A stretch of DNA of 64,000 nt, taken from the IMG/VR virus record IMGVR_UViG_2877800095_000002, one strand, 5' to 3'. The stretch's first letter is position 1, and each line of letters starts with the position of its first letter. The position numbers were made by a program, and so were the translations under genes. The DNA comes from an uncultured virus (IMG/VR IMGVR_UViG_2877800095_000002). Lineage: Duplodnaviria > Heunggongvirae > Uroviricota > Caudoviricetes. Of this stretch, positions 6,299-22,109 are shown one piece after another. The notes under the pieces were generated by a model. The model was not told where the DNA came from. It was given only the letters and a program-made list of their open reading frames with translations, and ran no database searches.

Positions 6299-8385
6299 GC
6301 CGCCACCGCCTGTTGCGGCGTCGGCCGTAGCCGCCGCTTCCATGGGTCGTTCGCCCGGGCGTATGCGGCCATCGTGTTCGGGCTCACGCTGTTGCCGCAC
6401 ATGTGGACCTGCTGGGATAGAGTGAACCGCTGCCCGTTGTGGCCCCGCTCGATGATGTAGCTGTCGGGGAAGCCCTGGGCGCGATACAACTCACGCGGTT
6501 TCAGCATTCGCAGGCGGATGTCGACGATCACGTAGGGGCTACCGCTGATCCAGACCGTGACCAGCGCCAAGCGGTCCTTGGTGGTTACGGTGCTGACCGG
6601 CTCGTCCAGCGGACGGATGTTCTCGCCCATGCCGTGGTACTTCATCAGGAACGCCGCCACCCATACGGCGCCTTCGACCTGTTCTGGGGTTAGGCTGCCG
6701 GCGATCATTTCTGGCGTGACCAGCATGTGGTGACCGCCGGTTGCCACGGTAGGCGCCGGCTGGTCCGCCGGCGTGCTGCTGTGGCCGGTGGTATTCGTCA
6801 CCAGAAGGGCGCTGACCAGGTCGTGGTGGTCCGTGCCGGTTTGCGTGCCCAGCGGTCCGTCCACCGGGGCGCCATGCGACCCCTTCCGCAGCGTTACCAG
6901 GTGTGCCGTGGCGAGCTGCTGCTGACTGCCCTTGTTCGTGATAGTGCTAATCGGGGCGTCGGCCGGGCGGCTGTGGGTGGTGTTGTAGCCCCCGTTGGCC
7001 TGGACCATGAACGCGGTGGCCACTCCGCAGTCAGCTTTCGCGGTGATGGTGTACATCGGCTCGGCGACCGAGCGCGGCTCGGTTTGGCCGGCGCGACCGC
7101 CGACACCGACCAATACCGCGCTGGCCAAGCCCAGGGCGTGCGCCGCGCCGGCTGGGCGCTTGCACTCGCCGCCGCTCGTGATCGTCGGCATCGGCTGATC
7201 GACCGGTGCGCCGGTGGCGTCGAACCGGAACTTCACCAGATGCGCCGCAGCGACAGCGTGCTTGATGCCGCCGGCGACCACGGTGCCGAGCGGTTCATCC
7301 AGTTCAAGGACGCGCGGTGCCTGTCCGTCGCGCTCGCCGTAGCCGACTTGGATCAGCGTCGGAGTGGCAACGGAGAAAGCGCCGCCCTTCGGCCAGGCAG
7401 TGATCGTGTTCAGCGGCTGGTCCACCGGATGCACGGCCTCGCGCGACCAGTTCGCGATCGGCACGATGAAGGGCCTGGCGCGCTGGAGCACTTCTTTCTC
7501 GATCCCCTTCGCGATGCGGCGCATGGTGGCCTCCGCCAGCGGCTTCTTCCGGTTGCGGATCGTCTGGCCGAGGTCGCTCCAATCGATGCACTCTGCGGCT
7601 GTGCGGTACGGCTTCAGCCCCTTGCTGGGCTTCGCGGCATGGGTCTTCTCCGCCGCCACTGGCTCGAAACCGCCGTCGGTGGCCACCAGGTACAAGCGCT
7701 GGCGGGTGGTCGGGTCGCCGTAGTCGCAGTTGCGCTCGACCCAATAGTCGACGTGGTAGCCGAAGCCTTCCAGGGCGCGCAGGAACTGGCGCCAGGTGCG
7801 GCCCTTGCGCTTCGGATCGGGCACCAGGAACTGCTCGTGCCGTGGTACCCGCTCGCCAGGACCGGCTACAGTGCCGTCGAGGCGCACGACGCGGCCGGTC
7901 GACTTGTCGCGCTTGGCGATCAGCGGGCCCCATTGCAGGATCTGTTTCACGTTCTCCAGGCTGATCACCCAGGGGCCGCGGCCGAGCTTATGGAGCTTGC
8001 CGGCCCACTTCACAACAACCCAGGACAGGTCGCGGATCTCTTTCTTGCGCGGCTGGCCGCCGGCGGCCTGGCTGTGGTGCCGGCAGTCCGGCGATGCATG
8101 CAGCCAGCCCACGGTGGCGCCCTTGGTGGCCTCGATGGGGTCGATGCCCCAGACATCGGTCGGCAGATGCTCGGCGTGCGGGTGGTTGGCCTCGTGCATG
8201 CTGATTGCGGCCGGGTTGTGGTTGATGGCCAGGTCGACCTTGCGGCCCAGGCCCATTTCCAGACCGGTGCTGGCACCGCCGCCGCCGGCGAACAGGTCGA
8301 CGATGATCGCGTCGTCGGCGTCGTCCAGGGCCAGGCCGTACTGGGTTTTGAAGTCGAGCGGGGAGGGCTTCTTGAGGGAAGTCAT
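6295..8385 (-). CDS. Phage DNA cytosine-5 methyltransferase
   Basis: Motif I DLFAGGGG, IV SPDC, VI ENV, VIII TRQRL, IX-X ELYRAQGFP..CGNSV. Confidence 0.93.
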   Translation of the reverse strand: MTSLKKPSPLDFKTQYGLALDDADDAIIVDLFAGGGGASTGLEMGLGRKVDLAINHNPAAISMHEANHPHAEHLPTDVWGIDPIEATKGATVGWLHASPDCRHHSQAAGGQPRKKEIRDLSWVVVKWAGKLHKLGRGPWVISLENVKQILQWGPLIAKRDKSTGRVVRLDGTVAGPGERVPRHEQFLVPDPKRKGRTWRQFLRALEGFGYHVDYWVERNCDYGDPTTRQRLYLVATDGGFEPVAAEKTHAAKPSKGLKPYRTAAECIDWSDLGQTIRNRKKPLAEATMRRIAKGIEKEVLQRARPFIVPIANWSREAVHPVDQPLNTITAWPKGGAFSVATPTLIQVGYGERDGQAPRVLELDEPLGTVVAGGIKHAVAAAHLVKFRFDATGAPVDQPMPTITSGGECKRPAGAAHALGLASAVLVGVGGRAGQTEPRSVAEPMYTITAKADCGVATAFMVQANGGYNTTHSRPADAPISTITNKGSQQQLATAHLVTLRKGSHGAPVDGPLGTQTGTDHHDLVSALLVTNTTGHSSTPADQPAPTVATGGHHMLVTPEMIAGSLTPEQVEGAVWVAAFLMKYHGMGENIRPLDEPVSTVTTKDRLALVTVWISGSPYVIVDIRLRMLKPRELYRAQGFPDSYIIERGHNGQRFTLSQQVHMCGNSVSPNTMAAYARANDPWKRRLRPTPQQAVAA

Positions 8386-8500
8386 GCGGCGGGTTCCTTT
8401 TCGCGAACGTGAGGACGCACTGCGCTATGCGTGATGGCGCAGTGATGTCGTTGGAGTTAGATTTGGAAGGCCCGGCATGGGGCCGGATCAAGGAGGAGAG

Positions 8501-8827
8501 ATGCCTGACTTCAGAATCGTCGAGATCGTGTTCGATGACACCAAGGTCTATTACCGGTATGAGACGGTGGGTGCATCAACAATCGGTGGAGAGCAAACAC
8601 CTGCTTATCAACAAGACATCATCCTCAATCATTTTCGGTCTGCCGCAGGCTATCGGGGTTCTCCGACCAAGGTTGAAAGCGCTGCACTTGTTGCATCGAA
8701 GGCCGTGGGACGAGTGGTCCAAACTTTGAGCGGATCCAAGGCTCAAGCCAGGTCGACAAAGAACGCTTGGGTAACCAAGGCGCATGCAGATGGTAACTAT
8801 GAGGTTCTCAACACCCAGAGTCGTTAG
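8501..8827 (+). CDS. Moron hypothetical protein
   Basis: AGGAGGAG RBS, lower GC, antisense to the operon. Confidence 0.7.
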   Translation: MPDFRIVEIVFDDTKVYYRYETVGASTIGGEQTPAYQQDIILNHFRSAAGYRGSPTKVESAALVASKAVGRVVQTLSGSKAQARSTKNAWVTKAHADGNYEVLNTQSR

Positions 8828-8955
8828 GCTGTACGCGACCCGCTAGAAGTACGTCAGCACTCCGTGAACAGGCACTGGACGCCGCCCTGCCTGACAGGGC
8901 GGCCCACGAGGCATGGTTGAATCGCCCACAGGGCGGCGTCCGGTGCGTGCTTGCT

Positions 8956-8984
8956 GGAAGAGAAAGCGCCCCGGGTGGGGCGCT
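8956..8984 (-). terminator. Probable intrinsic terminator after the ATPase gene
   Basis: AGCGCCCC-ACCC-GGGGCGCT then TTCTCTT on the minus strand. Confidence 0.55.
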
Positions 8985-8994
8985 GTATCGAGGG

Positions 8995-10740
8995 TCAGGC
9001 CGCAGCCTGTTGCTGCTGGTCGACGAGTTGCCCGGCGTCGATCCAGACCGCCTGTAGCCATGCCGGTGTCTTCGCCATCGGCTCCTTGAGCGTGCCGGCG
9101 ACGATCAGCGTGTCGATCTCGCCGCCGGCGGCCAGGCTCTGGAACAGCTTCATCGCCTGCTGAGTGCGAGCAGGGATATCCAGCACGTCGAAGCGATCCA
9201 GCAACGCCAGGCGCAGGCCGGAGATCGTCGCGATGGTCAGGGCCAGCGTCGCGTCGCACCGCCAGCGTTCGGACTCGGACAGCAGGCCGTACAGCCGGCC
9301 GCCGAACGTGACGTCGATGTCGGCGCTGATCTGCACGGGCGACCAGCCGGCGGTGCCGGATAGGCGCTGCAGCAGCTCGTTCACCGGTCCGATCGCGTCG
9401 GCCAGGATCTCAGCCGGGATACCCGCGGGGGAAAGGGCATCGGCCAGGGCGCTCCAGGCGCAGACCTCGGCGTGGAAGCCGGCGGCCTGCTTGATGACTT
9501 CCTGGCGCTGGGCGGCGGCGTTGAACGCTTCCTGCAGCGACTGCACCTTGGCCTGCTGCCGGTCACGCGCCTGGCGCAGTTCGTTGATCGCCTGTTCGCC
9601 GTTGGCGATCGCCTCTGCGCTGGGCGCCTGGGCGGTTTCGGCTTCCAGGGCGGCGGCCTGCGCGGCGGCGTCTTCGCTCTCCTTCAGGTCCCGCTGGCTG
9701 TTGGCGACGGCCCGCTGAGCGCTGGCAAGATACCCGCGGTACTCCTCCTGGCGTTTCGCCGCCTCGGGATCGGCAACCTTCGCCGGTGGCTGGTACGCGA
9801 CCAACTGGCCGGCCTGCAGGTCCACGGCGCCCTGGCAATGAGGGCAGGTCAGCGGCTGGTGGGCGGGCTCGCCGCTGGCGGCGGCCTCGGCTGCCATCAC
9901 CTTTTCCGACCATTCGTCCTGATTGGCCTCGTCGGTTGCCAGCTTGTTGCGCCGGCGGTCGGCCAGCGCTGCGGTTTCGCGCAGAGCGGTGATGCGGCTG
10001 GCCCGCGCCTGGGCGTCGGCGTGGGCGCGCTTGCTGGAGCCCAGGGTCTGCTGGGCCTCGTCCAGGTCCTGGGCGGTGGCTCGCAGTTCCGCGCGCGCCG
10101 ATTCCAGTTCCTCCTCGCTGACGATGACCGGCGGCGCCTCCGGCTCCCACCCGTTCGCCTTCTCGCTGCCGTAGTTCTCGCCGGTGATAGCCTTCCAGGC
10201 GCCGCGCGCCTCGCTGGCGTATGACTTGGCCTGCTCGACGGCGGCCGGGAACCCGGAGCGAAGCAGGGGCTTCACCTTTTCGAACAGCGCCAGGTCCAGG
10301 CCTTTGGCTTCCAGCCGCTTGCCGACTTCGGCCGGGCTGGCGCTGGCGCCGGTCAGGTCGAACAGCACCCGGCGGCGATCTTTGGCGTCCAGAGCGGCGA
10401 AGCGGCTGGCGTCGAGCACGAACGGCAGGAACGGCGAGTCGGCGAGCGGGGAGCCTTTGCCGCTGGGCAGCGCGACCCCGCAAGCCTGAACCTCGCCGGC
10501 CTCGTCCAGCCACTCGACACGGGCCTCGCCCTTCTTGGCGCCCTCGGTGATCAGTTGGCCGATATGCTGCTTCTGCGCAACGCGGCCGGGCTTACCGGTG
10601 AAGGCGTGGCTGATGGCGTCGAGCAGCGAACTCTTGCCGGCGCCGTTGTGGCCGGCCACCAGGAGCACCGGCGCAGAAACATCAAGGGCCGCATGACGCA
10701 GCCCTTGGAAGTTGGTGATTTCGAGTTTCGTGATGCGCAT
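8995..10740 (-). CDS. Rad50/SbcC-like SMC ATPase
   Basis: Walker A GHNGAGKSS, coiled coils, CPHC hook, LSESE, Walker B LALLD. Confidence 0.85.
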   Translation of the reverse strand: MRITKLEITNFQGLRHAALDVSAPVLLVAGHNGAGKSSLLDAISHAFTGKPGRVAQKQHIGQLITEGAKKGEARVEWLDEAGEVQACGVALPSGKGSPLADSPFLPFVLDASRFAALDAKDRRRVLFDLTGASASPAEVGKRLEAKGLDLALFEKVKPLLRSGFPAAVEQAKSYASEARGAWKAITGENYGSEKANGWEPEAPPVIVSEEELESARAELRATAQDLDEAQQTLGSSKRAHADAQARASRITALRETAALADRRRNKLATDEANQDEWSEKVMAAEAAASGEPAHQPLTCPHCQGAVDLQAGQLVAYQPPAKVADPEAAKRQEEYRGYLASAQRAVANSQRDLKESEDAAAQAAALEAETAQAPSAEAIANGEQAINELRQARDRQQAKVQSLQEAFNAAAQRQEVIKQAAGFHAEVCAWSALADALSPAGIPAEILADAIGPVNELLQRLSGTAGWSPVQISADIDVTFGGRLYGLLSESERWRCDATLALTIATISGLRLALLDRFDVLDIPARTQQAMKLFQSLAAGGEIDTLIVAGTLKEPMAKTPAWLQAVWIDAGQLVDQQQQAAA

Positions 10741-10743
10741 GGC

Positions 10744-11733
10744 TCACTCCAGGGTGATGGGCTCTTCGGCCGGGGCCTTGGTGGCAACGGCGACGCGGTA
10801 GGTGTTGAGGTCGGGCGATTCGCCTTCGGTGGCGAGCGTGATCACACCGTCGTCGAGCAGCTTCAGGGCGACAGCCAAGGACTCGTCGGTGCTCAGCGCG
10901 AAGCGCGACTGCAGCCAGCCCGGGGTGATCTCGTCTTTGCGCAGCACCAGGACGGTGATGTCGTCGATGGTGTGGCCGCCGTAGGTTGTGGCGCCGGGCT
11001 CGGCGGCACTGCTCAGCAGGTCTTTTTCCGGTTCCGGCGGCGATTGCAGGATCACCTCGCGCTCGCCGTTGGAGTTCGGTGCTGATACAACGCCGGCGGC
11101 TTCCATTTCCTCGACGATGCGCGCGGCGCGGTTGTAGCCGATTTTCAGGTAGCGCTGGAGCCCGCTGATGCTGACCCGGCGTGTGTCGATGACATGGCTG
11201 ACCGCTTCAATGTAGAGCGGGTCCTGCGCGCCAGTGCCGCCGGCCTCGTCGCCATCGTCGCTTTCGTCCAGGGCCAGGGCGCTCTGGTCGGGATCGGGTA
11301 CGACGGTGTCCATGCCCTGCAGGTACTCCTCAGCGTCGGCCACCACCAGCATGCAGACCTTGCCGGCACGGTCGATTAGGTCGTGACGCAGCGGGTCGAA
11401 CTGGCTGACCTTGAAGGTCGCCTTGATGCCTTCTTTGATCGCCACCGACTCCAGGATGCCGCCGATGGCCGGGCGCTCGCCGGCGGAAATCAGCTTGACC
11501 GCATACTTCACGGTGCGCTCTACGGTGCTGCGCAGGCGGTCGATGACGTCGGCTTGTTTCTTTTCGGTCAGCTTCGGCCAGACATCCGGCAGGACGCGGA
11601 CCTCCTGCAGCAGGGCCTGGAGCAGGTCGCGGCCGAGCGTTTCGGCAGCGAGGGAAACTACGGTGGCGGGCTGTTCCTCGTCGAACTCTTCTACGAGGTC
11701 TTGAGCGATAGTTGCGGCGGTTTGGGCTGTCAT
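10744..11733 (-). CDS. FtsK gamma-domain protein
   Basis: [34 protein letters not shown]. Confidence 0.85.
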
Positions 11734-11745
11734 TGGCTGCTGTTC

Positions 11746-11946
11746 CTACTGGTTGGCGATGCGTTCGAGGGTGGTGTGCTGGGACTCGCTGAGGAACATC
11801 CGCGGGCCGTAGCGCTGGAAGTTGGCGCGCAGGTCGGCGGTGAACTCTTCTTCCCAGGTGGTGGCGGCATTCAGCTCCGCCGCGCCGAGGAGGCTGTTGA
11901 ACTCCTCGACACGGTCGAACTGCTCTTCGACGGTTCGGCTGGGCAT
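11746..11946 (-). CDS. Phage hypothetical protein
   Basis: Fills the operon gap; typical codon usage. Confidence 0.7.
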   Translation of the reverse strand: MPSRTVEEQFDRVEEFNSLLGAAELNAATTWEEEFTADLRANFQRYGPRMFLSESQHTTLERIANQ

Positions 11947-11952
11947 GGCCGG

Positions 11953-12840
11953 TTACTCGAGATTGAGCTCGTCGGTGCCGGTGTCGCCGGTGTCCGACTG
12001 CTGGCCCGGGGCGGGTTCGGTGATTTCGCCCGTCTCGGTGTTCACGCCGTCCGGGTCCTGGTCGTCAACAACGCTGTATTCGCCGGTGAGGATGGACGCG
12101 TTGTCCTGGTCCAATCCGGCGTCGGCGCGTTCGTCCAGGGTGACTGCGGTCTGCAACTCGATGCTGACCGGCAGGTACTTGAACAGCCGGCGGATGACGG
12201 TCTTCTTGGCCATCTCTTCGTAGTGGGTGACCCAAGGCCCGTTTCCGGATGCCTTGCTGGTGGCGCGTACTTTGTCGACGTCGGCCTTGCTCATGACCTC
12301 GAATTGCACGCCGCCGTCCTTCAGCTTGGCGACCGCGTAGACGTGGGTCATGACGCCGCGTTCACCTTCTCCCGGAACGTGCTGGACGTCTTCGTCGAGG
12401 CCGTAGCGATAGCTGAACTGGTCGTTCTGGTGCACGGTGCGCGCGGTGAGCGAAACGATCTGGCCGGAGCGCCGGGCAAGGTCAATCATCCCGCGGTAGC
12501 CGATGATCAACTGGACGTTCGACAGGCCATCTTTCGCCTTGCCGTTGCCGAACGGCAGCAGGTAGGCATGGCCGAGAGCGTTACCCGGTTCCAGGCCGAG
12601 CTGCGCGCATTGCATCACGGCGCCGAGGAAACTCTCCTGATTGCATTTCGCCAGGGCCGGTACTTTGCGGATCTCGGTCAGCGCGATGCGCGCGAGTCGG
12701 TCGGCGGTCATGTGCTTCGGAAGCGCCAGGGCCATCTGGGCTTTGATCTTCGGGTCAGTCATCAGGTGGGCCAGCGTTTTCGGCTGGCCATTGTTGGCGA
12801 CATTGCCGGTCGCGGCGGCTTTCAGGGCGGTTGCGGACAT
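11953..12840 (-). CDS. recT: RecT single-strand annealing recombinase
   Basis: CAQLGLEPG..LGHAYLLPF, IIGYRG, EEMAKKTVIRRLFKYLP. Confidence 0.95.
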   Translation of the reverse strand: MSATALKAAATGNVANNGQPKTLAHLMTDPKIKAQMALALPKHMTADRLARIALTEIRKVPALAKCNQESFLGAVMQCAQLGLEPGNALGHAYLLPFGNGKAKDGLSNVQLIIGYRGMIDLARRSGQIVSLTARTVHQNDQFSYRYGLDEDVQHVPGEGERGVMTHVYAVAKLKDGGVQFEVMSKADVDKVRATSKASGNGPWVTHYEEMAKKTVIRRLFKYLPVSIELQTAVTLDERADAGLDQDNASILTGEYSVVDDQDPDGVNTETGEITEPAPGQQSDTGDTGTDELNLE

Positions 12841-12852
12841 GCTGGGCTCCGG

Positions 12853-13761
12853 TTACTTGAGGCGGAAAACGCGGGATTCGCTGGTCTTCTTGAACTGCTC
12901 GAACAGCGCGGGGTGAGCTTCCTTGAAGGCGGATTGGTCGAAGCGGTTGGTGGTCTGGGACTTCCACGTCAGTACCGACTTGCCGTTGACCGTGAGTTGG
13001 GCGTGGTCCTGCATGAAGAGCTTGATGCGCTCCTCTGCGGACTCGATCTCGTACTCCAGGCCCTTGGCCTTGGCTTTCAGTTCGCGCAGGCGGTTGAACA
13101 CCTCCACGACCTTGCCATCGGCCTCGATGCTGGTTCCGGCGTCACGCTCGAACAGCCGGAGGATGTCGCTGACAGCGGTTGCTTCGGGCGGATCCAGGCG
13201 CTGGATGCGTCCCCAGAACTCGACCTCCTTCTCGCGAATCGCCGCGATGGTTTCGTCGTCCCGCTCGACGCGGTACACGCGGAAGTCGTCGCCGCCGATC
13301 AGCACGCCGAAGATGCAGACCTGGCGGCCGGTGACCATCAGGCCGTGCATGGCCTGGGCGGTGTAGTGGACTGGAATGGCATCGGTCTGAACCTCACCCC
13401 AGTCCTTTGCCTTGAATGGGCTGACCGTCTTGATCTCGATGTTTTCGCCGCTGGCGGCCTCGGCGTCGATCTCGGCGGCCATGAAGTCGTGCTGCTGGTC
13501 GCGGTAGCGGTTTCCGCGACCGATGATCTTCAGGCCGGTCTCTTCGGCCAGCAGGTCGATGACGTAGGGCTCCATCCGCTGGCCACGGGTGAAAATCTTC
13601 TGCTTCGCCGGGTCGACGGGACCGGTGCGCGGCTGGATCTTATCCAGGTACACGTCCAACGGAGTGCGCCAGGGGCTGATGCCGAGGATGCCGGCGACAT
13701 CGCTGCCGCCGAGGTACTTGGTGCGGTCGAGCGCGCCGACCGATGCGAGAGCTGCAGTCAT
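12853..13761 (-). CDS. YqaJ-like (lambda exonuclease family) nuclease
   Basis: LGGSDVAGILG.SPW, G..MEP, EIK, Y.AQ. Confidence 0.9.
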   Translation of the reverse strand: MTAALASVGALDRTKYLGGSDVAGILGISPWRTPLDVYLDKIQPRTGPVDPAKQKIFTRGQRMEPYVIDLLAEETGLKIIGRGNRYRDQQHDFMAAEIDAEAASGENIEIKTVSPFKAKDWGEVQTDAIPVHYTAQAMHGLMVTGRQVCIFGVLIGGDDFRVYRVERDDETIAAIREKEVEFWGRIQRLDPPEATAVSDILRLFERDAGTSIEADGKVVEVFNRLRELKAKAKGLEYEIESAEERIKLFMQDHAQLTVNGKSVLTWKSQTTNRFDQSAFKEAHPALFEQFKKTSESRVFRLK

Positions 13762-13771
13762 GGGGCTGGTC

Positions 13772-13981
13772 TCATTTCAGGGTGAGGGTGGTTGTTGCGT
13801 GAAGGCGGGGGTTGCGCCGGAAGCGCAGAACGCAGAGGTCGCCGCAGATGTTGGCGAAGAGCGGGTTGTGGTAGCCGTGGCGGTTGGCCAACTCGACGGC
13901 CTGGCGGATGCTCTTTCCGGCAAACTCTTCGATATCGTCGAGTTGGTCGTCGATGATCGAGCGAACGGGGCGGGTGGTCAT
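13772..13981 (-). CDS. Phage hypothetical protein
   Basis: ATGA coupling to the upstream gene. Confidence 0.6.
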   Translation of the reverse strand: MTTRPVRSIIDDQLDDIEEFAGKSIRQAVELANRHGYHNPLFANICGDLCVLRFRRNPRLHATTTLTLK

Positions 13982-14199
13982 GTGTTCGTGCTCCTGAGTT
14001 CTGCCCAGCGCGAATCCGCCGCGGCGTCGAGCCGGCGGCGCATGTCGTCGTAGAGGCGGGTGTCGATGAAGTCCACTGCGTAGGCCAGTTCGATCTGGCC
14101 GTGGAGGAAGCTCTGTTCGGGGCGCGGAAAGTGGGACCGGCGCATGGCCGTGATGCCTTCCTCAATCATCCGAACCGCGCGTTCATTGCTGAAGGCCAT
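13978..14199 (-). CDS. Phage hypothetical protein
   Basis: Start MAFSNE with AGGAGG RBS. Confidence 0.65.
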   Translation of the reverse strand: MAFSNERAVRMIEEGITAMRRSHFPRPEQSFLHGQIELAYAVDFIDTRLYDDMRRRLDAAADSRWAELRSTNT

Positions 14200-14335
14200 C
14201 GTCGTCCTCCTGCTCTTCGTCCTCGTGCTCCGGTTCCGGCTCCGGCTGGTCCCAGAGCGGGTCGACGGCACGGTCGTAAGCGAGTTGCGCGTTGCTGAAA
14301 GCCGCGCGGTTGCGGCGCTCGCGGTATGTCCACAT
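14183..14335 (-). CDS. 50-aa protein with acidic tail (not in ORF track)
   Basis: MWTYRERRNRAAFSNAQLAYDRAVDPLWDQPEPEPEHEDEEQEDDDGLQQ; GGAG RBS. Confidence 0.55.
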   Translation of the reverse strand: MWTYRERRNRAAFSNAQLAYDRAVDPLWDQPEPEPEHEDEEQEDDDGLQQ

Positions 14336-14434
14336 CGGGATGCTCTCCGTGGTTCACCTGCATTCGGCAGCACCCAGGCACACGGCAGTCGTGCCCGGTG
14401 GGGCGCCGTGGTGGGTGCTCTCGAATGGAGGTTG

Positions 14435-14458
14435 AAAAAAGCCCGGCCGGAGCCGGGC
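14435..14458 (-). terminator. Intrinsic terminator
   Basis: GCCCGGC-TCCG-GCCGGGC then T6. Confidence 0.75.
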
Positions 14459-14478
14459 AAAGAGGGGGAACGCTGCAT

Positions 14479-14688
14479 GCGCAGCGGGGAGTGATCTGGC
14501 CGGTCGCGACTCCGGCTCTGGCATCAGTGCGCTTCTCGGGTGTTTGCCGCTGCTGCGGTGACTGTGCTGATGCCCGGAACTTCATCGGCCATGGCCGCCC
14601 ACGTGCGCGCTTGTTCCCGCGCTTCCCGCGTGTCTCCAGGGAGCTTTCGGCTCCCAGCTTCCACGCCTCAAATCACTCCCCGCTGCGC
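14479..14688 (-). ncRNA. Putative structured RNA resembling c4 antisense RNAs
   Basis: Perfect 17-bp closing stem, internal hairpins, GCCGGAGTCGCGACCGGCCA arm, downstream terminator. Confidence 0.5.
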
Positions 14689-14911
14689 CCTGGCCGTGCC
14701 AGGAGCAGGAAAGAGAAGGGCGCCGCCAAGCGCCCTGTCTCCACTTACATGCACCGCCTTATGTGAAAGCGGTTGGGTACAGGCTCGACCGCATGTTGGT
14801 GATCTGCCGATTGAGGCTGGGCTACATGGTGAGGTCCCCCGTTGTACGCGCCGTTGGACCGGCGGGCGCTCGCCGTGGGTTAAACGCCCGGCAATGGGCC
14901 AGGCGCCGAAG

Positions 14912-15283
14912 TCAGGAGATCGCGGTGCAGGCCCGCAACGCCACCGGCGCCGACTGGCCTTCGATCCAGATAACCGCCGCCCCGCCAAGCGACACGCTGG
15001 CCCGGCCGACGGTGCGGGTGCGCTGCGGTTCGGCCCCTCGGTACGGGCGGTACTCGATCAGCGCTGGCGCCGGGTGCTCTCGGTTCCAGGCTTCGACCAG
15101 CTCCGCCGGCGGTACCGGTCGGACGTTGCCGATCTGCTGGTAGATCTCGGAGCGGTGGATGGCGACGTCGTCCGGGGCGGTGATGCCGAGGCGCACCTGG
15201 TCGCCTTGGCTGCCGAGGACAGTGACGGTGATGTTGTCGCCGATATGCAGGGTTTCGCCGGGTCTTCTGGTCAGGATCAGCAT
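14912..15283 (-). CDS. csrA: CsrA/RsmA-family protein with extra C-terminal domain
   Basis: [44 protein letters not shown]. Confidence 0.9.
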
Positions 15284-15318
15284 GGTGTGACTCCGTTCAG
15301 GATGCTGGACGTGCGGGC

Positions 15319-15531
15319 TCAGGCCGGTTCGCAGTGGGAAAGGGCAACGCAACCGGACACTCCGGCGAGCCAGACGACAGCGGTGTGTCCGCCGAGGATC
15401 TGGGCTTCAGTAGTGGTCCGGGTGCGCTTCGGCGTTGCGCCGCGATGGAATCGGTAGTCGACCTCGGTGCCGACGGGATATGCGGAATTCCAGGCAGCAA
15501 CGGTCGCCGCCGGGTTGGCGTTTCGCTTCAT
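15319..15531 (-). CDS. Small protein paralogous to the C-terminal domain of the CsrA fusion
   Basis: AWN..P..Y...RGA.P.RTRT...AV.W..G....VAL..C shared with the neighbour. Confidence 0.75.
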
Positions 15532-15584
15532 CGGGTGTCTCCGGATAGAGTTCGGTGATGCCCTGCTACCGGCAGGGCGGCGGG

Positions 15585-15860
15585 TTATAGGTCGGCCCAG
15601 CCTTGGATTGCTGGATCGATTGCCGGCGCCTGCTGCTTCAGCAGTTGGTCGGCGTACACGCGGGTTTCTTCCCAGGTGTCCGCATCGGCGAAGACGTGGC
15701 GCTTGTACTCGCCAGAAGTGACGCCGACGTAGCGAACAAGCGCGCCGTAGTCGCGGCAGATTTCCCGGCCGTCAGCGGCCAGCATCAGGTTGACGCAGCA
15801 GTACATGGCGCCGACTTCCAGCGGGTTGCGGTCAATGTCCAGAATCTGTTCAGTTGCCAT
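15585..15860 (-). CDS. Phage hypothetical protein, first gene of the PL transcript
   Basis: GGAGG RBS, start MATEQ. Confidence 0.65.
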   Translation of the reverse strand: MATEQILDIDRNPLEVGAMYCCVNLMLAADGREICRDYGALVRYVGVTSGEYKRHVFADADTWEETRVYADQLLKQQAPAIDPAIQGWADL

Positions 15861-16201
15861 CGTCTTGCCCTCCAGGGCGTGTTGACTTCCCAGATGCCCC
15901 TCTTGCGAAGGGCATCGAGGAAATCGGTGTTGCTGTTGCCCGGTTAGCGCTGGGCGGCGCTGCGCATCACGTGCGGGTCGTTCACACGGTTCGGGCATTT
16001 CGCCCTCGATCAGCCGTCTCTGGTCGCCCTGAGCAAGGGTCGCCATCGCGTTGGTAGGTGTTGCCTCAGCACCTATCTGATCGCCGGTCGCCGCAGAGGC
16101 GATGCGTTCTGCTGTTGATGTTGCTCACCCGACTTTCTGTCGCCCCACGGGTGATGGCCGGGGCTGCCTCGCCGCGTTGCGGCTAGCTGTTCATGGCGCG
16201 G

Positions 16202-16215
16202 GTTGTGAAAGAGCG
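16202..16215 (-). promoter_or_regulatory. boxA antitermination element
   Basis: CGCTCTTTCACAAC against lambdoid consensus CGCTCTTTAACAA. Confidence 0.7.
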
Positions 16216-16261
16216 GTCGGCTCGGTGGCCTGGCCGGCGGTGTGTTGCTGGCGTGTGTAGA

Positions 16262-16303
16262 AAAGTACACAACGTATTTATCATGGTCAATACAAAATGT
16301 ACT
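16262..16303 (-). promoter_or_regulatory. PL promoter with two operators
   Basis: TTGACC-17-TACTTT; TAC-N5-GTA at 16266-16276 and 16291-16301. Confidence 0.75.
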
Positions 16304-16353
16304 TATTTCTTCGAAAGAAAAGCCCGCTTGAGGGCGGGCTTGATGGTCAAAGA

Positions 16354-16593
16354 TCAGCGAGGGAGGTCGACGTACCAGTAAACGAATAGGCTCCCGTCAT
16401 TCCGAGCCTCGACATTTACGCCGTCGATACTGCGGAGGTCTCGCTCCAGTCGAAGCCAGGCCCATTCCGGTTCGTTGCTCGCGCGCTTGATCCGCACGGA
16501 CTGTTGGACTTGTGCCTGGGGGCTTTCAATCAGCGCCCGGACTCGGTCGACGACAGCGATATAGGTGGTTTCGGACCATGGAGAGAACAGCAT
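16354..16593 (-). CDS. DUF1654-like protein
   Basis: Aligns by eye with the divergent neighbour; terminator at about 16314-16341. Confidence 0.7.
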   Translation of the reverse strand: MLFSPWSETTYIAVVDRVRALIESPQAQVQQSVRIKRASNEPEWAWLRLERDLRSIDGVNVEARNDGSLFVYWYVDLPR

Positions 16594-16652
16594 TCCGAGT
16601 ACTCCTTGTGCTTCGATGCTGGCAGTTGCTGACAGAGTTCTGCTATAAAAAT

Positions 16653-16668
16653 ACTGTACGAATATACA
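16653..16668. promoter_or_regulatory. LexA (SOS) box
   Basis: CTGTACGAATATACAG matches CTGT-N8-ACAG. Confidence 0.85.
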
Positions 16669-16686
16669 GTGTGGAGGATTCTTTCG

Positions 16687-17001
16687 ATGGCCAAACAACA
16701 GAAGAAGCAGGACGCGAAACCGATGGCTCCGGTTGAGAAATTGGGGCTCCGCATATCGGAGATGATCAACTCACCGAAAGCCCAAGACCTGCGCACGGTG
16801 ACGATCCATCGCCTGGACACGGATCCGGATGAAGCGTGGGAGCAGGTGATGGAACTGCTGTCCGAGACCGACGGCATTGACATGGTTTTCAACGACGACG
16901 GCACGGTAACGCTGAAGTGGGAGGAGCGTGAAGGAAGTGACGACCAGGTGGAAAGCCAGAGCGAGGATATGGCGACCTATCAGGTCAAGGGGAGGATGTA
17001 G
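16687..17001 (+). CDS. DUF1654 family protein
   Basis: LGLRIS.MINSP.AQ..R.VTIHRLDTD...W..DDGTVTLKW; GGAGGA RBS. Confidence 0.8.
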   Translation: MAKQQKKQDAKPMAPVEKLGLRISEMINSPKAQDLRTVTIHRLDTDPDEAWEQVMELLSETDGIDMVFNDDGTVTLKWEEREGSDDQVESQSEDMATYQVKGRM

Positions 17002-17066
17002 GATGGAGACCACGTGGGCGGCGACCAGCCTCGTCAGCGTTGCATGGTCTGGCTCGACCGCAAACG

Positions 17067-17091
17067 AAAAGCCCCGCATCTGCGGGGCTTT
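17067..17091. terminator. Bidirectional terminator
   Basis: AAAAGCCCCGCA-TC-TGCGGGGCTTT between convergent genes. Confidence 0.8.
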
Positions 17092-17098
17092 GGGGGCG

Positions 17099-17518
17099 TC
17101 ATGATGGAAGTTGGATCAGATTGCTCTGGACGGCCGCAGCTTGGGCCTTGGTGATGTCTAGACTTTCCAAAGCACAATCCTGGATTGCGCGTGTGATTTG
17201 ATCGGAGAGCGTACAGACAGGCTTCACACGGCCAGAGAACCGTTTGTTCAGCATCTCAACGGCGTTCAGCTCATAGAACTCATTGAGGCATACCCAGCTT
17301 TCGCGTTTTAGGTAAGAGCACCCAGGTGGCAAGAAGAAGTTGTGGAACCGGTCTTTCGGCTGACAACCGAAAAGTGTGCCGCGCCCATGCTGTTGGGATG
17401 TAGTCTTAGCGACGACGGTAACAGAGTGGTCGCTTCCCAAGACTACGAAAAGCTTTTCACCGGTCTCGCCATCATGGAAATGGAACTCTTCATCGAAAAA
17501 GACCGATCCGGGTGTCAT
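17099..17518 (-). CDS. Putative toxin, PemK/MazF-like fold
   Basis: G.V....F.FHDG..GEK.FVVL...V.VAKTTS; ATGA-coupled to the Panacea gene. Confidence 0.6.
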   Translation of the reverse strand: MTPGSVFFDEEFHFHDGETGEKLFVVLGSDHSVTVVAKTTSQQHGRGTLFGCQPKDRFHNFFLPPGCSYLKRESWVCLNEFYELNAVEMLNKRFSGRVKPVCTLSDQITRAIQDCALESLDITKAQAAAVQSNLIQLPS

Positions 17519-18072
17519 CTAAGCTGTTCCAATAGCTCTTTTCGTTCGCGTGCTACCTGAAGCAGAGTTTCCGCTTCCTGGCTGCGTAGTGCGAGTTCGT
17601 ATGGGATACGTTGTTGCTTGGCGCCCTGTTGGTTGTAAACCTTGTCCCATGGCATGTTCTCAAGGTGTGTAGCCTCGACCATGTCATCAGCAAGCGCATC
17701 GGCGTACTCCTCGGCAAGACGGTGCATTAACAGCATCTCACGACGAGTAAAGTTCTGATCCGAGAACTCTATATTTGGAGTGACATCAAGCATGACCTGG
17801 CGACCATTCCTGATCGGCTTTTGGGTAAAGGTCATCGATGCCGCCATATCGGGTTGCGGCAAGTCTATTTCTGCCACCAGATCGACTGGCACCGGCCCCA
17901 TGGGCCAAGCGCTGTAATCCAGTCCGGTCACGCTTCGACCAGTATCTTTGAAGTGCTCGAAATCAAGGAAGTAGAGAAGCTTAAAGAGCTTCACCTTCCC
18001 GCAGTTTCTGGTGTTTTGGACGAAAAAAATGATCGCTTGAATCAGCTTTTCTCGTTCGTGAGTGATGAGCAT
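17515..18072 (-). CDS. Panacea (SocA/DUF4065) antitoxin
   Basis: KLFKLLYFLD..H..TGRSVTG..Y.AWPMGPVP, TH...PW. Confidence 0.88.
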   Translation of the reverse strand: MLITHEREKLIQAIIFFVQNTRNCGKVKLFKLLYFLDFEHFKDTGRSVTGLDYSAWPMGPVPVDLVAEIDLPQPDMAASMTFTQKPIRNGRQVMLDVTPNIEFSDQNFTRREMLLMHRLAEEYADALADDMVEATHLENMPWDKVYNQQGAKQQRIPYELALRSQEAETLLQVARERKELLEQLR

Positions 18073-18186
18073 GGGTCTTTCTCCTATTGCCCTCAGCTTA
18101 TCACATGCGGTCTTGACTAAGAATTGTCAAGACGCTAGGCCGCTCCGGGAGTGTTGCTCAGAATTTCTGCCCGTTCCACCCGTAGA

Positions 18187-18819
18187 TCACCTGAACTTGC
18201 GGATAGCTCGGGTGACAACGCCGACCATCTCGCAGTTGTCGTCGATGGATAGCATGCGATATGCGGGGTTCAGGGGTTTCAAGTACTTCTGGCCTGCGTC
18301 GGACACGAACTGTTTGAAGGTTGCCTCGTTGCTGTCGGCCAGCTTCGCAACCACCAGATCGCCAGGCCTCGGCTCGAGCCCGGTGTCGACGAGAATCAGC
18401 ATGCCTTCCGGAATGCTCTCGCCGGCCGGGGCCGTCATCGAATCCCCCTTCACCTCCAGCCAGAATGACCTTCCCTTACCCTTGTAGTCACTGAGTTCGA
18501 ATGTATCGAAGCCGGCCGGCTCTATCGCTTCGCGCCAAGCGCCTGCGGCGACCCAGCTAACTATCGGGTATCGATACATGCGGGTCGGCTGATCTGCTGG
18601 TGCCACGTTCTGCATTCGATCATCAGGCAACTGGATTGTGAGAGGGGGCAGATTGAGCAAGGTCAACATTTGATTGATGTCGGCAATGCTGGGCTCTCTC
18701 CGCCCGTTTAGCCAGTGCGCTACGGCCCCCTGAGTTTTCCCCATCTGCTCTGCGAGCTGCGCTTGTGTGATGTCCTGCCGCGCCATGGCATTGCGGACTA
18801 TCTGTATCCAGTTATTCAT
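18187..18819 (-). CDS. cI: CI-like repressor (HTH plus S24 peptidase)
   Basis: TQAQLAEQMGKTQGAVAHWLNG; VKGDSM; ATFKQF. Confidence 0.95.
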   Translation of the reverse strand: MNNWIQIVRNAMARQDITQAQLAEQMGKTQGAVAHWLNGRREPSIADINQMLTLLNLPPLTIQLPDDRMQNVAPADQPTRMYRYPIVSWVAAGAWREAIEPAGFDTFELSDYKGKGRSFWLEVKGDSMTAPAGESIPEGMLILVDTGLEPRPGDLVVAKLADSNEATFKQFVSDAGQKYLKPLNPAYRMLSIDDNCEMVGVVTRAIRKFR

Positions 18820-18830
18820 GGGCGGAATGC

Positions 18831-18903
18831 TACAGACCGTATTAGCAAGTGCAACGCACGTCATGTACTAATCCTTGCAAGAAATAAGTACGAAATGTAT
18901 TTT
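18831..18903. promoter_or_regulatory. OR operators and PR promoter
   Basis: TAC-N5-GTA at 18831-18841 and 18889-18899, degenerate copy at 18857-18867; TTGCAA-17-TATTTT. Confidence 0.75.
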
Positions 18904-18934
18904 TAAAAAAGGACACTTCACCTTGGAGGAAGCC

Positions 18935-19177
18935 ATGAGTGCCTTGAAAGCCATCCGCAAGCAGGCGGGTGTGACCCAGACCCAGCTTGCCGAGCGAGTT
19001 GGGCTGACCCAGGCCGCGATCGGCCACTACGAAACAGGGCGCCGTAAGCCTGGGCTCAGTGAATGCCGACGCATCGTGGCGGCACTGAACGACCTTGGTG
19101 CTGAGTGCACGCTGGCTGAAGCTTTCCCTGAGCCAGAGCATGACTCGCTTGCTGTATCCGTCCAAATGGCGTCCTGA
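18935..19177 (+). CDS. cro: Cro-like HTH regulator
   Basis: TQTQLAERVGLTQAAIGHYETG; divergent from cI; GGAGG RBS. Confidence 0.9.
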   Translation: MSALKAIRKQAGVTQTQLAERVGLTQAAIGHYETGRRKPGLSECRRIVAALNDLGAECTLAEAFPEPEHDSLAVSVQMAS

Positions 19178-19179
19178 CC

Positions 19180-19650
19180 ATGTCGACGAGCAAGTTAACT
19201 CCCGAGCAATCGAGCTCTAGCTTCGGCGGGGTGGTAGGCGGCCTTACCTTGACGCAGTCCCAGCTTGGCCTGGTGCTGCTTGCCAATCGGTGCGAGCCGG
19301 ACAGCACTGAGCTGTTCCTCCGCGTCACCGCCCACGATCTGCCCGTCCAGTTCTACACGCCGCTGCACACCAGCCATGGACCCCGGATCGGGTTCCTCCA
19401 TTTCACGCTGGGCTCAACGGAGGAGGTGGGGGGCGTCACGACAGGAACGTACGAACTATCTCGACTGCTCGAGGCAGATTGTCCATGCCCAGGTCCAGTA
19501 GTCGCGTTGTCAGGTGTTTTATGGAATCGGCGGGCAGTCCTCGAAGCGCTTGAACAAGCTGGATTTTCTCCTCCGGCGTCACCTGCTGATCACTCGCCGT
19601 GGCGAGACGTAGCTCGATCATCTGGCGGAGAGAGTCCTCATGAAACTTGA
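19180..19650 (+). CDS. Hypothetical protein after cro
   Basis: Starts 2 nt after the cro stop; coding-like codon usage in its 5' half. Confidence 0.5.
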   Translation: MSTSKLTPEQSSSSFGGVVGGLTLTQSQLGLVLLANRCEPDSTELFLRVTAHDLPVQFYTPLHTSHGPRIGFLHFTLGSTEEVGGVTTGTYELSRLLEADCPCPGPVVALSGVLWNRRAVLEALEQAGFSPPASPADHSPWRDVARSSGGESPHET

Positions 19651-19948
19651 TCGTCACCGGCCCCAGGATTGCGCTCAGACCTCCGTCGTCTGCCAGAAAG
19701 TCGATTCCCTTGGCGCTGATCTCTGCGTACAGCAGCTCGCGCCCCTCGCTCATGAGGTCAGTGATCTTCGCCCGGATCAGGCCGTGCTCGTGCAGGTAGG
19801 CGCAGCAGGCGGTGAGCATCTTGGTGTCGTCGAAGAGATCGGAGAGCCCATCGGTATGTACCGGATCGGGATACGCGTCCGCCAAGCGGTCCAGAACGGC
19901 TTTCTGAGTCGTGCGATCGATTTTCAAGTTTTCAGCCTCCTCGGCCAT
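19436..19948 (-). CDS. Hypothetical protein, wHTH-like N-terminus
   Basis: YLHEHGLI...ISAKGIDFL pattern; GC3-rich codons. Confidence 0.7.
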   Translation of the reverse strand: MAEEAENLKIDRTTQKAVLDRLADAYPDPVHTDGLSDLFDDTKMLTACCAYLHEHGLIRAKITDLMSEGRELLYAEISAKGIDFLADDGGLSAILGPVTIKFHEDSLRQMIELRLATASDQQVTPEEKIQLVQALRGLPADSIKHLTTRLLDLGMDNLPRAVEIVRTFLS

Positions 19949-20030
19949 CGCGCTGTAAGGGGAGCCAGGTATAGCGCGGTCATCCGTGCGTCATGGCGAA
20001 ATGATCCTAACCGTGTGGGAGACGCAGTGC

Positions 20031-20603
20031 ATGCGGAATGAGTCGCACACCCTGATTTCCACGCTGCTCGGCGTGGTGAACCAATGGCGCCGCCGAGAGG
20101 GGTGGAGCCGAGAGACCGTGGTCCAGCACATCGTGGAGGCGCACGAGCGCATCCAGGGAGCGCTGGTCACCGGCATCGTCTTCGACCCGCCGACGCGCGA
20201 TACAACCGAGAGGATGAAGGTCAACGCCGACCGCGTGTTCCGCTGGCTCGACGACGGAACCAAGGACACCAACCTGGTGCCGGCGAACTTCGTACCCAGC
20301 ATCCTCGCCGCGCTGCCGACTGACCTGAAGGTCCAGGCCCTGGGCGACATCCTGACGCCGCTGGGCGTGTCGGTGCGCTTGATCGGCGGCGATGCTGGCC
20401 AGCGGCCGGAGGTGCTCTGCATGCTCCGGACACTCATCAAGGAGAACGGTGAGGCGCAGCAGGCCGTGGCCAACCTCGTCGACGGCGCTGATGACCAGGA
20501 ACTGCAGGAGGCCCACCGGGAGCTCTCCGAATCCAGGGCGGCGACCGATGAGGCGCTGCGGATGATCGACCAGATGCGCCGGCCGCGCCTTGTTCAGGGG
20601 TAG
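20031..20603 (+). CDS. YdaT-like (CII-equivalent) regulator
   Basis: Position between cro and replication genes; NADRVFRWLD..PSILAALP. Confidence 0.6.
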   Translation: MRNESHTLISTLLGVVNQWRRREGWSRETVVQHIVEAHERIQGALVTGIVFDPPTRDTTERMKVNADRVFRWLDDGTKDTNLVPANFVPSILAALPTDLKVQALGDILTPLGVSVRLIGGDAGQRPEVLCMLRTLIKENGEAQQAVANLVDGADDQELQEAHRELSESRAATDEALRMIDQMRRPRLVQG

Positions 20604-20605
20604 CC

Positions 20606-21568
20606 GTGCCGTCCTTCCAGATCAACGACGAGGAGCGGGAGGCGCTCCGCGGCCTACCCATGCTTGCCCGCGAGATCTACGTGTTCGCCCTGCGCCCGTT
20701 CATGGACTTCGCAACAGGCGTTGTCGGAGAACGGCGCGGGATCTCTTGGAAGTCGATCGCCGAGGAGCTCTACGTCGAGCCGCACCAGGGCATCAAGGGC
20801 GGCGAGCCTTCCGAAAAGGAACTGCGGCGGGCGCTGGTCTGGCTGCAGAAGGTGGGCCTGGTGGGCCCCAACTTGGCCGAAAGGCGCCTGATTTTTGAGT
20901 TGCCGAAGGCTTCACGGGATCAATCCGTCCGAAAAAAAGTGGGCACTAAGTGGGCAGATGAAGCGGGCAGTTATGTGGAAGGGTCGGAGCCCAGTAACTA
21001 CGCGGCTTTCCCGGAAAAAGAGGGCAGATATGTGGGAGGGGGTGAAAGTGAAAAAGTGGGCACACCTCCGGTATCCGGTATTCCTCCTACTACTCCACCG
21101 CGCGAGGACCCGCAGCCCGGACAGCGATTCCCCATGCATGACGCCTGGCTACCCAGCGCCAGGGGCTGGCCCGCGACACTGACCCGTAACGGCATGAAGA
21201 ACTACCAGCTACGCGACGAGGATCTCCTCGAGTTCCGTAGCTACTGGATCAACCGCCCCGAGAAGTATCAGTCCCAGGGCCAGTGGGAACACGAACTTGC
21301 GCAGAACCTCCTCCGCAACCAGCGCTTCGACCAGAACAGGAGCAGCTATGGAAACCAAGCAGGAAACGCCGAAGGCCAAGCCGGCCATCGTGCCGCAAAG
21401 CGCGGCCTCTCACATCGACAAGGCCCTCGCTCAGCCGTCGACCGCGTCAACGCAATCGTCGCCGCCAACGAGGCTGCCCGACAGGCTGCTGGAACGCCTC
21501 TGGGTGAAGATGACCGAGATGTACGGGCACCGCTGGACGTCGAGTTTTGGCGACAACCCGAATCCTGA
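20606..21568 (+). CDS. Replication initiator (O-like) with DnaT-like C-terminal domain
   Basis: Internal iterons; FPMH..W.P..L.EFRSYW. Confidence 0.75.
   Translation: MPSFQINDEEREALRGLPMLAREIYVFALRPFMDFATGVVGERRGISWKSIAEELYVEPHQGIKGGEPSEKELRRALVWLQKVGLVGPNLAERRLIFELPKASRDQSVRKKVGTKWADEAGSYVEGSEPSNYAAFPEKEGRYVGGGESEKVGTPPVSGIPPTTPPREDPQPGQRFPMHDAWLPSARGWPATLTRNGMKNYQLRDEDLLEFRSYWINRPEKYQSQGQWEHELAQNLLRNQRFDQNRSSYGNQAGNAEGQAGHRAAKRGLSHRQGPRSAVDRVNAIVAANEAARQAAGTPLGEDDRDVRAPLDVEFWRQPES
20937..21062 (+). repeat. Five AAGnGGGCA iterons, probable phage origin
   Basis: Copies start at 20937, 20948, 20961, 21018 and 21054. Confidence 0.7.
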
Positions 21569-22109
21569 CGGCGCCTGGGCTACGGTGCTCCAGGGGCTGA
21601 CCGGCCAGCAATTGGCCCACGGGCTCAACATGCTGACGTTCATGGGCAGCCGGTTCGACTGGCCGCCGGCGGCGCCGACATTCCGGGAGCTCTGCTTGAG
21701 CGTCCAGCCGGAGTCGCTCGGTCTGCCGGACCACGACACCGCGTTCAACCAGGCTCTGGCGTGCCGCTACCGCCACCAGGTGGTCAAGGCCGCCGCCGAG
21801 GCCACCGGCGTTTTCGATCTGCGCACCGGCGAGGTGAACGACGATCGCCTCCGCAAGCGCTTCGGGTTCCACTACGCAGAGATGGTCCGGCGGTGGGCAA
21901 ACAACATCCCGCTGAGCCAGCCCGTCATCCACGCGATTGAGCATGACACCGGGAAGAGCCTGCTGGACCTGGCCGAGGATGAGGCCGAGCAGCAGCTCCG
22001 CCGGCGGATGCAGGCCCAGGGCCTGGATGGGCTCAGTGGCGCACAGGCGCGGGAAATGCTGCTGGCCAAGATGCGCCGGAAAGCGCCGGAGGTGCGCCGT
22101 GATGCATGA
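21348..22109 (+). CDS. Replication protein P-like; start uncertain
   Basis: MYG.RW.S.FG, W...L..L...Q...G, WPP.AP.F..LC. Confidence 0.7.
   Translation: METKQETPKAKPAIVPQSAASHIDKALAQPSTASTQSSPPTRLPDRLLERLWVKMTEMYGHRWTSSFGDNPNPDGAWATVLQGLTGQQLAHGLNMLTFMGSRFDWPPAAPTFRELCLSVQPESLGLPDHDTAFNQALACRYRHQVVKAAAEATGVFDLRTGEVNDDRLRKRFGFHYAEMVRRWANNIPLSQPVIHAIEHDTGKSLLDLAEDEAEQQLRRRMQAQGLDGLSGAQAREMLLAKMRRKAPEVRRDA

Follow-up and report, generated by a model that had tools for sequence, protein, structure and literature searches.

As judged by sequence comparison, the 123-amino-acid (aa) protein encoded here is shown to be RsmM/Bci, a phage-borne version of RsmA, the translational regulator of the host, and its C-terminal tail is predicted to be a small beta-barrel paralogous to the product of the gene immediately upstream. 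We consider it reasonably probable that RsmM/Bci is a phage Rsm regulator that engages in cross-talk with host RsmA and carries the barrel in cis, and that the free upstream gene is an optional gene of the ancestral donor type. The window, by which we mean the whole stretch of 64,000 nucleotides that was analyzed, is a temperate Pseudomonas phage with a virion region resembling those of OQ658365, D14H, and AUS531phi. The features discussed below are collected in Table 1.

Table 1. Features of the rsmM/bci locus and the evidence on which each was placed
Feature	Position	Strand	Basis
rsmM/bci, 123-aa CsrA/RsmA-barrel fusion	14912..15283	-	phrog_5527 match (1.9e-70) over full length; identity with Bci
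CsrA/RsmA core, residues 1-52	15128..15283	-	Pfam and NCBIfam profiles, residue alignment
Fused small beta-barrel (predicted), residues 55-121	14921..15121	-	Alignment to free ORF, predicted structure
Free 70-aa barrel protein, phrog_9165, F116 gp25-like, optional gene	15319..15531	-	PHROG match, AlphaFold2, locus scans
10-nt word common to both copies in codon phase	15419..15428 and 15015-15024	-	Longest shared word
Ribosome-binding site of fusion, ANGGA in predicted 6-nt loop	15291..15296	-	Motif scan and fold
Intrinsic-terminator-like hairpin, about 175 nt past fusion stop	14717..14736	-	Consensus match only

The fusion gene is a known gene of Pseudomonas phages

Both open reading frames (ORFs) lie on the minus strand; the 70-aa ORF comes first, and the 123-aa fusion follows 35 nt downstream. 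The fusion protein is 98.4% identical to the 123-aa Bci protein of phage AUS531phi (QGF21359.1), 98.4% identical to the phi297 protein, and 63.4% identical to the F116 protein, and five GenBank records contain a protein that is 100% identical. A full-length fusion was present in 46 of the 81 matching GenBank phage records, all 46 of them Pseudomonas phages. The genome scan returned full-length fusions at two loci, one in P. paraeruginosa and one on a 3.2-kb contig of a Devosia MAG, which we infer to be mis-binned. By pattern, the ORF was intact at 149 of 152 loci.

The gene is therefore already known: Bci was knocked out in 2020 and is a member of the RsmM subfamily, and Bci and F116 YP_164288.1, together with phi297, appear among the phage rsmM alleles in Table 3 of PMC7366521. 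An earlier note on this DNA had described a phage CsrA protein with an intact RNA-binding arginine and a beta-rich tail, paralogous to the adjacent ORF, and had proposed that the two proteins form a module. The description is borne out by the analysis below; the two-protein module is not, and the identity of the protein as Bci/RsmM had been missed.

The CsrA core retains the RNA-binding residues

Residues 1 to 51 of the fusion match the Pfam CsrA family (PF02599) at 86.6 bits (cutoff, 27), and the protein lies above both NCBIfam csrA equivalog cutoffs (NF002469, 88.7 against 73; TIGR00202, 77.5 against 70.1). Aligned to the RsmA-type chain 7yr6_E, which we take to be P. aeruginosa RsmA, the core is identical at 35 of 52 residues and retains L2, L4, R6, R7, R31, H43, R44, and E46. 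The arginine of the IHRSEIY motif singled out by the earlier note is intact in this alignment and corresponds to Arg44. Across the fusion alignment R44 is invariant and H43 nearly so, and L4 and R44 have been described as critical for RNA binding by CsrA (PMC7652899).

At five positions the K, N, K, E, and R of the RsmA-type chain are replaced by Q26, D28, D38, S45, and Q50, respectively. The core has 4 K/R and 6 D/E residues, compared with 7 K/R and 6 D/E in the RsmA-type chain; because the core is less basic, its RNA binding may be weaker. K38 is described as one of four basic interface residues close to the RNA site (PMC5864733). Asp38 is also found in 11 of 83 other CsrA matches, and two divergent fusions keep K38. 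In the monomer model of the fusion, residues 1 to 60 form three strands and a helix, with pLDDT values of 55 to 76.

The tail is predicted to be a remodelled member of a common phage barrel family

AlphaFold2 predicts the free 70-aa protein to consist of a helix and a five-stranded barrel (pLDDT 93). The fused copy is predicted with pLDDT values of 89 to 95 over residues 61 to 123 and likewise contains a helix (residues 59 to 69) followed by strands. These models suggest for the RsmM tail a small beta-barrel of five strands, capped by a helix and of the SH3/Tudor/KOW-like type, in agreement with its earlier description as beta-rich.

Structure searches with the predicted models suggest a fold class for the barrel but no family. 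The best match, 9g6k_LS, had a Z score of 6.5 and an rmsd of 3.0 over 61 aligned residues (VIA-align, same best Z in two runs), many families tied, and none of 48,161 chains reached a Z of 8 or more. Foldseek returned no match to the barrel in the PDB at an E value of 0.001 or better. An assignment of the barrel to any one named fold family was set aside, given the blank Foldseek search at threshold and the best VIA-align Z of 6.5. Pfam searches with 90 family members gave nothing convincing (10 weak matches; best E value, 0.0075); the KOW, Tudor, and chromo models were absent from these matches, and MLVIN_C appeared once, at an E value of 0.075. The named Atlas neighbors of the barrel (DUF7205 and DHFR_2) scored 0.75 to 0.80 and are taken as leads only, and a viral library gave two significant matches, both to uncharacterized proteins. 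The only clear sequence relative among solved entries is PDB 3G87, in which the barrel profile matches residues 334 to 393 of chain A (E value, 1.7e-10); despite this sequence match, 3G87 was absent from the structural match lists. As a separate observation, 3G87 is a malonyl-CoA:ACP transacylase that carries the barrel family at its C terminus, outside any phage context.

A search with a 19-sequence profile placed 3,270 clusters at 50% identity in the barrel family. Of 216 family proteins that were scanned, 103 had an extension of more than 40 residues and the other 113 were stand-alone; the barrel is fused N- or C-terminally to many unrelated proteins. The partners in 44 longer matches included exonuclease-like, MerR-like, and nucleoside deoxyribosyltransferase-like proteins, and most were unnamed; one family member (P0102) contains three tandem copies of the barrel. 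Of 401 genomes sampled from the family of the host, 5 contained the barrel.

The fused copy has departed from this family. The free ORF matches phrog_9165 over its full length at an E value of 1.9e-51 and has the complete family signature (N15, G21, T39, A43, L46, G48, H49, T50, and C61), whereas the fused copy matches phrog_9165 at an E value of 1.9e-13, and G21, L46, H49, T50, and C61 (free-protein numbering) are absent from all seven fusion types examined. These five residues are conserved at 93 to 99% in 87 other family members, a figure inflated by the choice of members, which relied on a profile started from the free type. Within the fusions, W66, N67, Y78, A95, W106, and C119 are invariant down to 56% identity.

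The fused and free barrels are old paralogues

Residues 55 to 119 of the fusion align without gaps to residues 3 to 67 of the free protein, with 29 of 65 positions identical (45%; E value, 7e-18). The pairwise comparison that the earlier note had proposed as a check was thus highly significant: the Smith-Waterman score of 142 compared with a mean of 24.5 and a maximum of 63 for shuffled sequences, and none of 5,000 shuffles scored as high. The two ORFs match their own PHROG families (5527 and 9165) over their full lengths, in addition to a cross-match. In two maximum-likelihood trees, one Pseudomonas nitroreducens protein grouped with both the free and the fused copies, with branch support of 97/93 (86 rows) and 92/92 (43 rows); the alignments are short, the 86-row tree is a selection from about 200 sequences, and the first bootstrap was still unsettled. 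Since both trees join these three sets, the term paralogue is justified. For the P. nitroreducens relative (P0095), the viral-locus scan gave only one distant locus.

The stem branch of the fused copies is long (1.3 to 1.5 changes per site), and the fused copy scores 55.6 bits against the family profile, compared with 106.8 bits for the free copy. A recent tandem duplication was rejected, as the two copies are only 49% identical in DNA and 32% identical at third positions. Between distinct alleles, rough pairwise dN/dS was about 0.18 in the free gene, 0.28 in the CsrA core, and about 0.26 in the fused barrel, where it was 0.04 within the main allele class and 0.42 within the F116 class. By these ratios the fused barrel is under purifying selection despite the loss of the His/Thr/Cys signature, and so is the free gene. 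In our reading, an old duplicate was captured by CsrA and remodelled, and has been retained since. Three database proteins (P0010, P0012, and P0340) are natural chimeras in which the first half of the free protein is joined to the second half of the fused one, with the CsrA core deleted; the position of the junction fits the in-phase 10-nt microhomology listed in Table 1.

The free gene is an optional neighbor of the fusion

The proposal of a two-protein module was poorly supported by the distribution of the free gene. Of 142 fusion loci, the best 80 were examined for the free gene. It was missing at 45, at least 2 kb of upstream sequence being in view at 44 of these, and it was present at 35, three of them partial or split. 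Likewise, it was missing from 11 of the 46 GenBank phage records with a full-length fusion, including AUS531phi. In the opposite direction, the fusion lay within 2.5 kb at all 72 close free-gene loci among the best 80 of 229 viral barrel loci. At loci with both genes, the spacing was 490 to 1,079 bp at 29 of 94, a count that pools two overlapping scans, so that some contigs are counted twice. No CsrA gene was detected at 13 of 13 loci outside the P. aeruginosa type, made up of 8 distant viral loci (by phmmer and by motif) and 5 others (by motif); at four of these 5, the flanks extend only about 1.5 kb.

Identical or near-identical free proteins accompany both main allele classes of the fusion, with no sign of matched pairs. 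Five signature residues of the free copy are absent from the fused one, so the two barrels are unlikely to share a ligand. The link of the free gene to the fusion is one-way and is explained by their ancestry, although dependence, or a role of the free gene as a dispensable modulator, is possible. Taken as a whole, the two genes are probably not a required pair.

Locus context and expression signals

On one side of the fusion and the free gene is a cI-like repressor gene (18187-18864), and on the other a block encoding RecE-like exonuclease, RecT-like, and SbcC-like proteins. Judged by gene content and order, the two genes belong to the early-left region of a temperate lambdoid phage and would, from that order, be transcribed from a pL-type promoter; no match to the sigma-70 promoter consensus was found in 13700-17100. 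Among expression data, one run contained the whole stretch as a single contig, which may represent DNA, and two raw-read runs yielded no reads. Reads of a further run (X24) matched only two pieces of leader hairpin (15554-15587 and 15868-15927), from another strain and in a different sequence context, which suggests that these pieces are reusable leader cassettes.

The ribosome-binding site of the fusion is one of only two ANGGA motifs on the minus strand of 13750-16330. The motif was present upstream of the fusion at all of the best 80 of 142 loci, and the stem was not conserved. The site is a candidate for autoregulation, as a lead only; any GGAG site can look so. Rfam searches of 8000-22000 gave nothing near gathering scores. 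An adjacent phage sponge resembling RsmY/Z was considered and rejected: the RsmY matches at 17066-17092 cover model positions 96 to 121 only, and 13750-16330 has just the two minus-strand ANGGA motifs.

The site upstream of the fusion is a hotspot for gene exchange. In OQ658365 an oppositely oriented acetyltransferase gene (L003:2186-2770) sits between the free gene and the fusion, and in AUS531phi a GNAT gene (L002:1648-1842) lies upstream of bci. Elsewhere in the window, a low-GC two-gene insert (17099-18072, minus strand) follows the repressor, in which a SocA/Panacea antitoxin-like gene (17515-18072) overlaps a 139-aa ORF without a family; the insert is possibly a toxin-antitoxin or defense pair. 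Two DUF1654 paralogues stand head to head (16354-16698, minus strand; 16669-17001, plus strand), forming a second paralogue pair near that of the fusion and the free gene. The RecT-like gene is followed by a gene (10744-11733) whose product has a short FtsK-like stretch, and by a gene for an SbcC-like ATPase (8995-10740, minus strand).

A candidate structured RNA cassette lies downstream of the fusion

Downstream of the fusion, a conserved 20-bp inverted-repeat stem encloses a multibranch interior (14479-14688, minus strand; z, -5.5), followed by a terminator-like hairpin at 14441-14458. Both stem arms were found at 125 of 169 loci from overlapping scans, with nine types of interior (122 to 218 nt) that are mostly unrelated in sequence. 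Among 30 variants of the stem arms, four positions have changes on both sides that preserve pairing. The cassette was also located at L007:4221-4362, L029:1314-1435, L059:2222-2354, L015:4151-4349, L026:1367-1526, L071:3506-3658, and L162:3091-3237. No Rfam family or tRNA was detected in eight variant cassette loci, and no antisense target of more than 12 nt was found in the flanks. The cassette is a candidate for a processed noncoding RNA with exchangeable cargo and may merit study of its own. Its connection with the CsrA protein is one of adjacency only.

Function of RsmM/Bci

In the explanation that we favor, the CsrA core would most likely dimerize, forming homodimers and probably heterodimers with host RsmA, and would bind ANGGA loops in host mRNAs and in RsmY/RsmZ, shifting quorum sensing, motility, and biofilm formation to the advantage of the phage. 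Dimerization and ANGGA binding are proposed on the strength of the conserved residues, RsmQ, and the bci knockout already published. By analogy, host RsmA is a plausible partner for heterodimers, given the identity of 35 of 52 residues and the RsmQ precedent; that identity to 7yr6_E, the retained RNA-binding residues, and the behavior of RsmQ make cross-talk with the host the most likely mode of action. The tail would have been captured long ago through duplication of the upstream gene, a proposal for which the paralogy comes from trees and the fold from prediction. The barrel would since have been remodelled and kept by selection, and we infer that it serves in cis as an additional surface for contact with RNA or protein. 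The free 70-aa protein would represent the ancestral-type donor, an accessory gene with a CsrA-independent role of its own rather than an obligate partner.

Several observations run against this explanation. The fusion lies near the free gene at all 72 close free-gene loci, and purifying selection also acts on the free gene (dN/dS, about 0.18). RNA binding is perhaps weaker than that of the RsmA-type chain, given the lower basicity of the core, and the bci phenotypes of less motility and more pyocyanin resemble loss of RsmA rather than gain. The best fold match of the barrel reached a Z of only 6.5, and no ligand for it was found. The main rival explanation, which we rate as rather unlikely, is that RsmM/Bci acts mainly as an antagonist: a subunit weakened in RNA binding that would join RsmA in heterodimers and poison it, while its barrel would block or reroute the second RNA site. 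Phage carrying bci cause less motility, more biofilm, and more pyocyanin (PMC7546807), and rsmA mutants are described as being without swarming and overproducing pyocyanin (PMC3791407). The fusion has Q, D, and Q in place of K26, K38, and R50 of the RsmA-type chain, K38 being at the RNA-site interface (PMC5864733), and Rsm heterodimers have been shown for RsmQ (PMC9928087). However, RsmQ binds RNA and yet gives a motile-to-sessile switch (PMC9928087). The invariance of R44 and near invariance of H43 also speak against antagonism, as do the presence of Asp38 in 11 of 83 other CsrA matches and the retention of K38 in two divergent fusions. Lower levels of quorum-sensing (QS) regulator transcripts in the presence of bci fit repressor activity, with which, in RsmA biology, such lowered transcripts are consistent.

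We regard as improbable a module in which, in the phages that carry it, the free barrel would titrate or retarget the phage Rsm protein, either by attaching to the fused barrel or by competing with it for a partner. The two copies are true tandem paralogues, the fusion is present at all 72 close free-gene loci, and P0102 shows that three copies can stand in tandem; C-terminal extensions of CsrA bind FliW (PMC7652899), and a scaffold role has been suggested for the RsmM tail (PMC7366521). Against this, the free gene is missing from 45 of the best 80 of 142 fusion loci, the same free sequences accompany both main fused allele classes, the barrel family occurs elsewhere without CsrA, and the five signature residues kept by the free copy are gone from the fused one, which makes a common ligand unlikely. 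It is similarly improbable that capture of a Tudor/KOW-like barrel has retargeted the CsrA protein RsmM/Bci, such that heterodimers with RsmA would be brought to a new RNA or protein partner and the free ancestral barrel, where kept, would be a dispensable competitive tuner; mRNAs of defense genes, or the structured RNA cassette just downstream, are examples only of what such a partner might be. Least likely of all, in our estimation, is that the barrel is a passenger, left behind when genes of the early region were shuffled, and contributes no more than stability to the CsrA core. Such an origin would suit the 103 of 216 scanned proteins with extensions of more than 40 residues, fused at N or C termini, the loss of the signature residues, and the natural chimeras, which show that the copies recombine. 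It sits poorly with the dN/dS of the fused barrel (0.04 in the main allele class and 0.26 overall), with the confident prediction that the barrel folds, and with the six residues, W66 to C119, that are invariant across fusions down to 56% identity.

Comparison with known systems

The closest described system is Bci itself, which was deleted in the P. aeruginosa prophage AUS531phi (Ambroa et al. 2020, PMC7546807). With bci present, transcripts of QS regulators were near 1- to 1.5-fold, compared with 5- to 13-fold without it; host growth and motility were lower, biofilm and pyocyanin were higher, and infection curves were altered (PMC7546807). The words "complement" and "polar" are absent from the main text of that paper, so polar effects of the knockout are possible. 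AUS531phi resembles the window in the placement of the gene upstream of small ORFs and recombination genes and in its virion region (67% of a 24-kb query at 96.6%), but it is without the free 70-aa gene, and the knockout phenotype was thus seen in a phage without it. F116 resembles the window in having gp25 followed in tandem by gp24.

Sobrero and Valverde (2020, PMC7366521) class RsmM as a subfamily that is specific to P. aeruginosa and its phages and whose C-terminal extension is structured, and the fusion agrees with it as a P. aeruginosa-specific, phage-borne CsrA protein with such an extension. In the sections of PMC7366521 that deal with the tail, an extra helix and short sheets are predicted and a scaffold role is guessed, and neither a separate barrel nor a paralogous neighbor is recognized. 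The portion of PMC7546807 describing Bci notes a CsrA domain at residues 1 to 51 and does not identify the tail, and the available text of PMC9144972 adds nothing on RsmM/Bci. In the literature searched, in which subscription journals are thinly covered, we did not find the tail identified as a barrel paralogous to the upstream gene.

We take RsmQ of plasmid pQBR103 as the functional model, as another Rsm homologue of a mobile element. Its binding of ANGGA RNA requires H43 and R44, and it binds RsmY/Z and forms heterodimers with host Rsm proteins (PMC9928087). It differs from the fusion in being plasmid-borne in P. fluorescens and in having no fused barrel in the description given in PMC9928087. 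FliW, which acts via the C-terminal extension (PMC7652899), and CesT provide precedent for proteins that modulate CsrA; the free ORF showed no homology to either, having no Pfam or NCBIfam match at E values up to 1. Small beta-barrels, such as the KOW domain of uL24, Tudor, chromo, and PWWP domains, and the retroviral integrase C-terminal domain, are alike in predicted fold (Z, 5 to 6.5).

Because the protein has been named and a knockout published, the gene itself is not new. The useful addition is anatomical: RsmM/Bci has two domains, and its tail appears to derive by remodelling from an unnamed barrel that is very common in phages; a function for this barrel would annotate thousands of phage protein clusters. 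This anatomy allows one to ask whether the phage Rsm protein mimics or antagonizes host RsmA, a question that arises because the published phenotypes are partly like RsmA loss, and whether it dampens CRISPR-Cas, a suppression by phage RsmA homologues that is proposed, but not shown, in the relevant text of PMC8450108.
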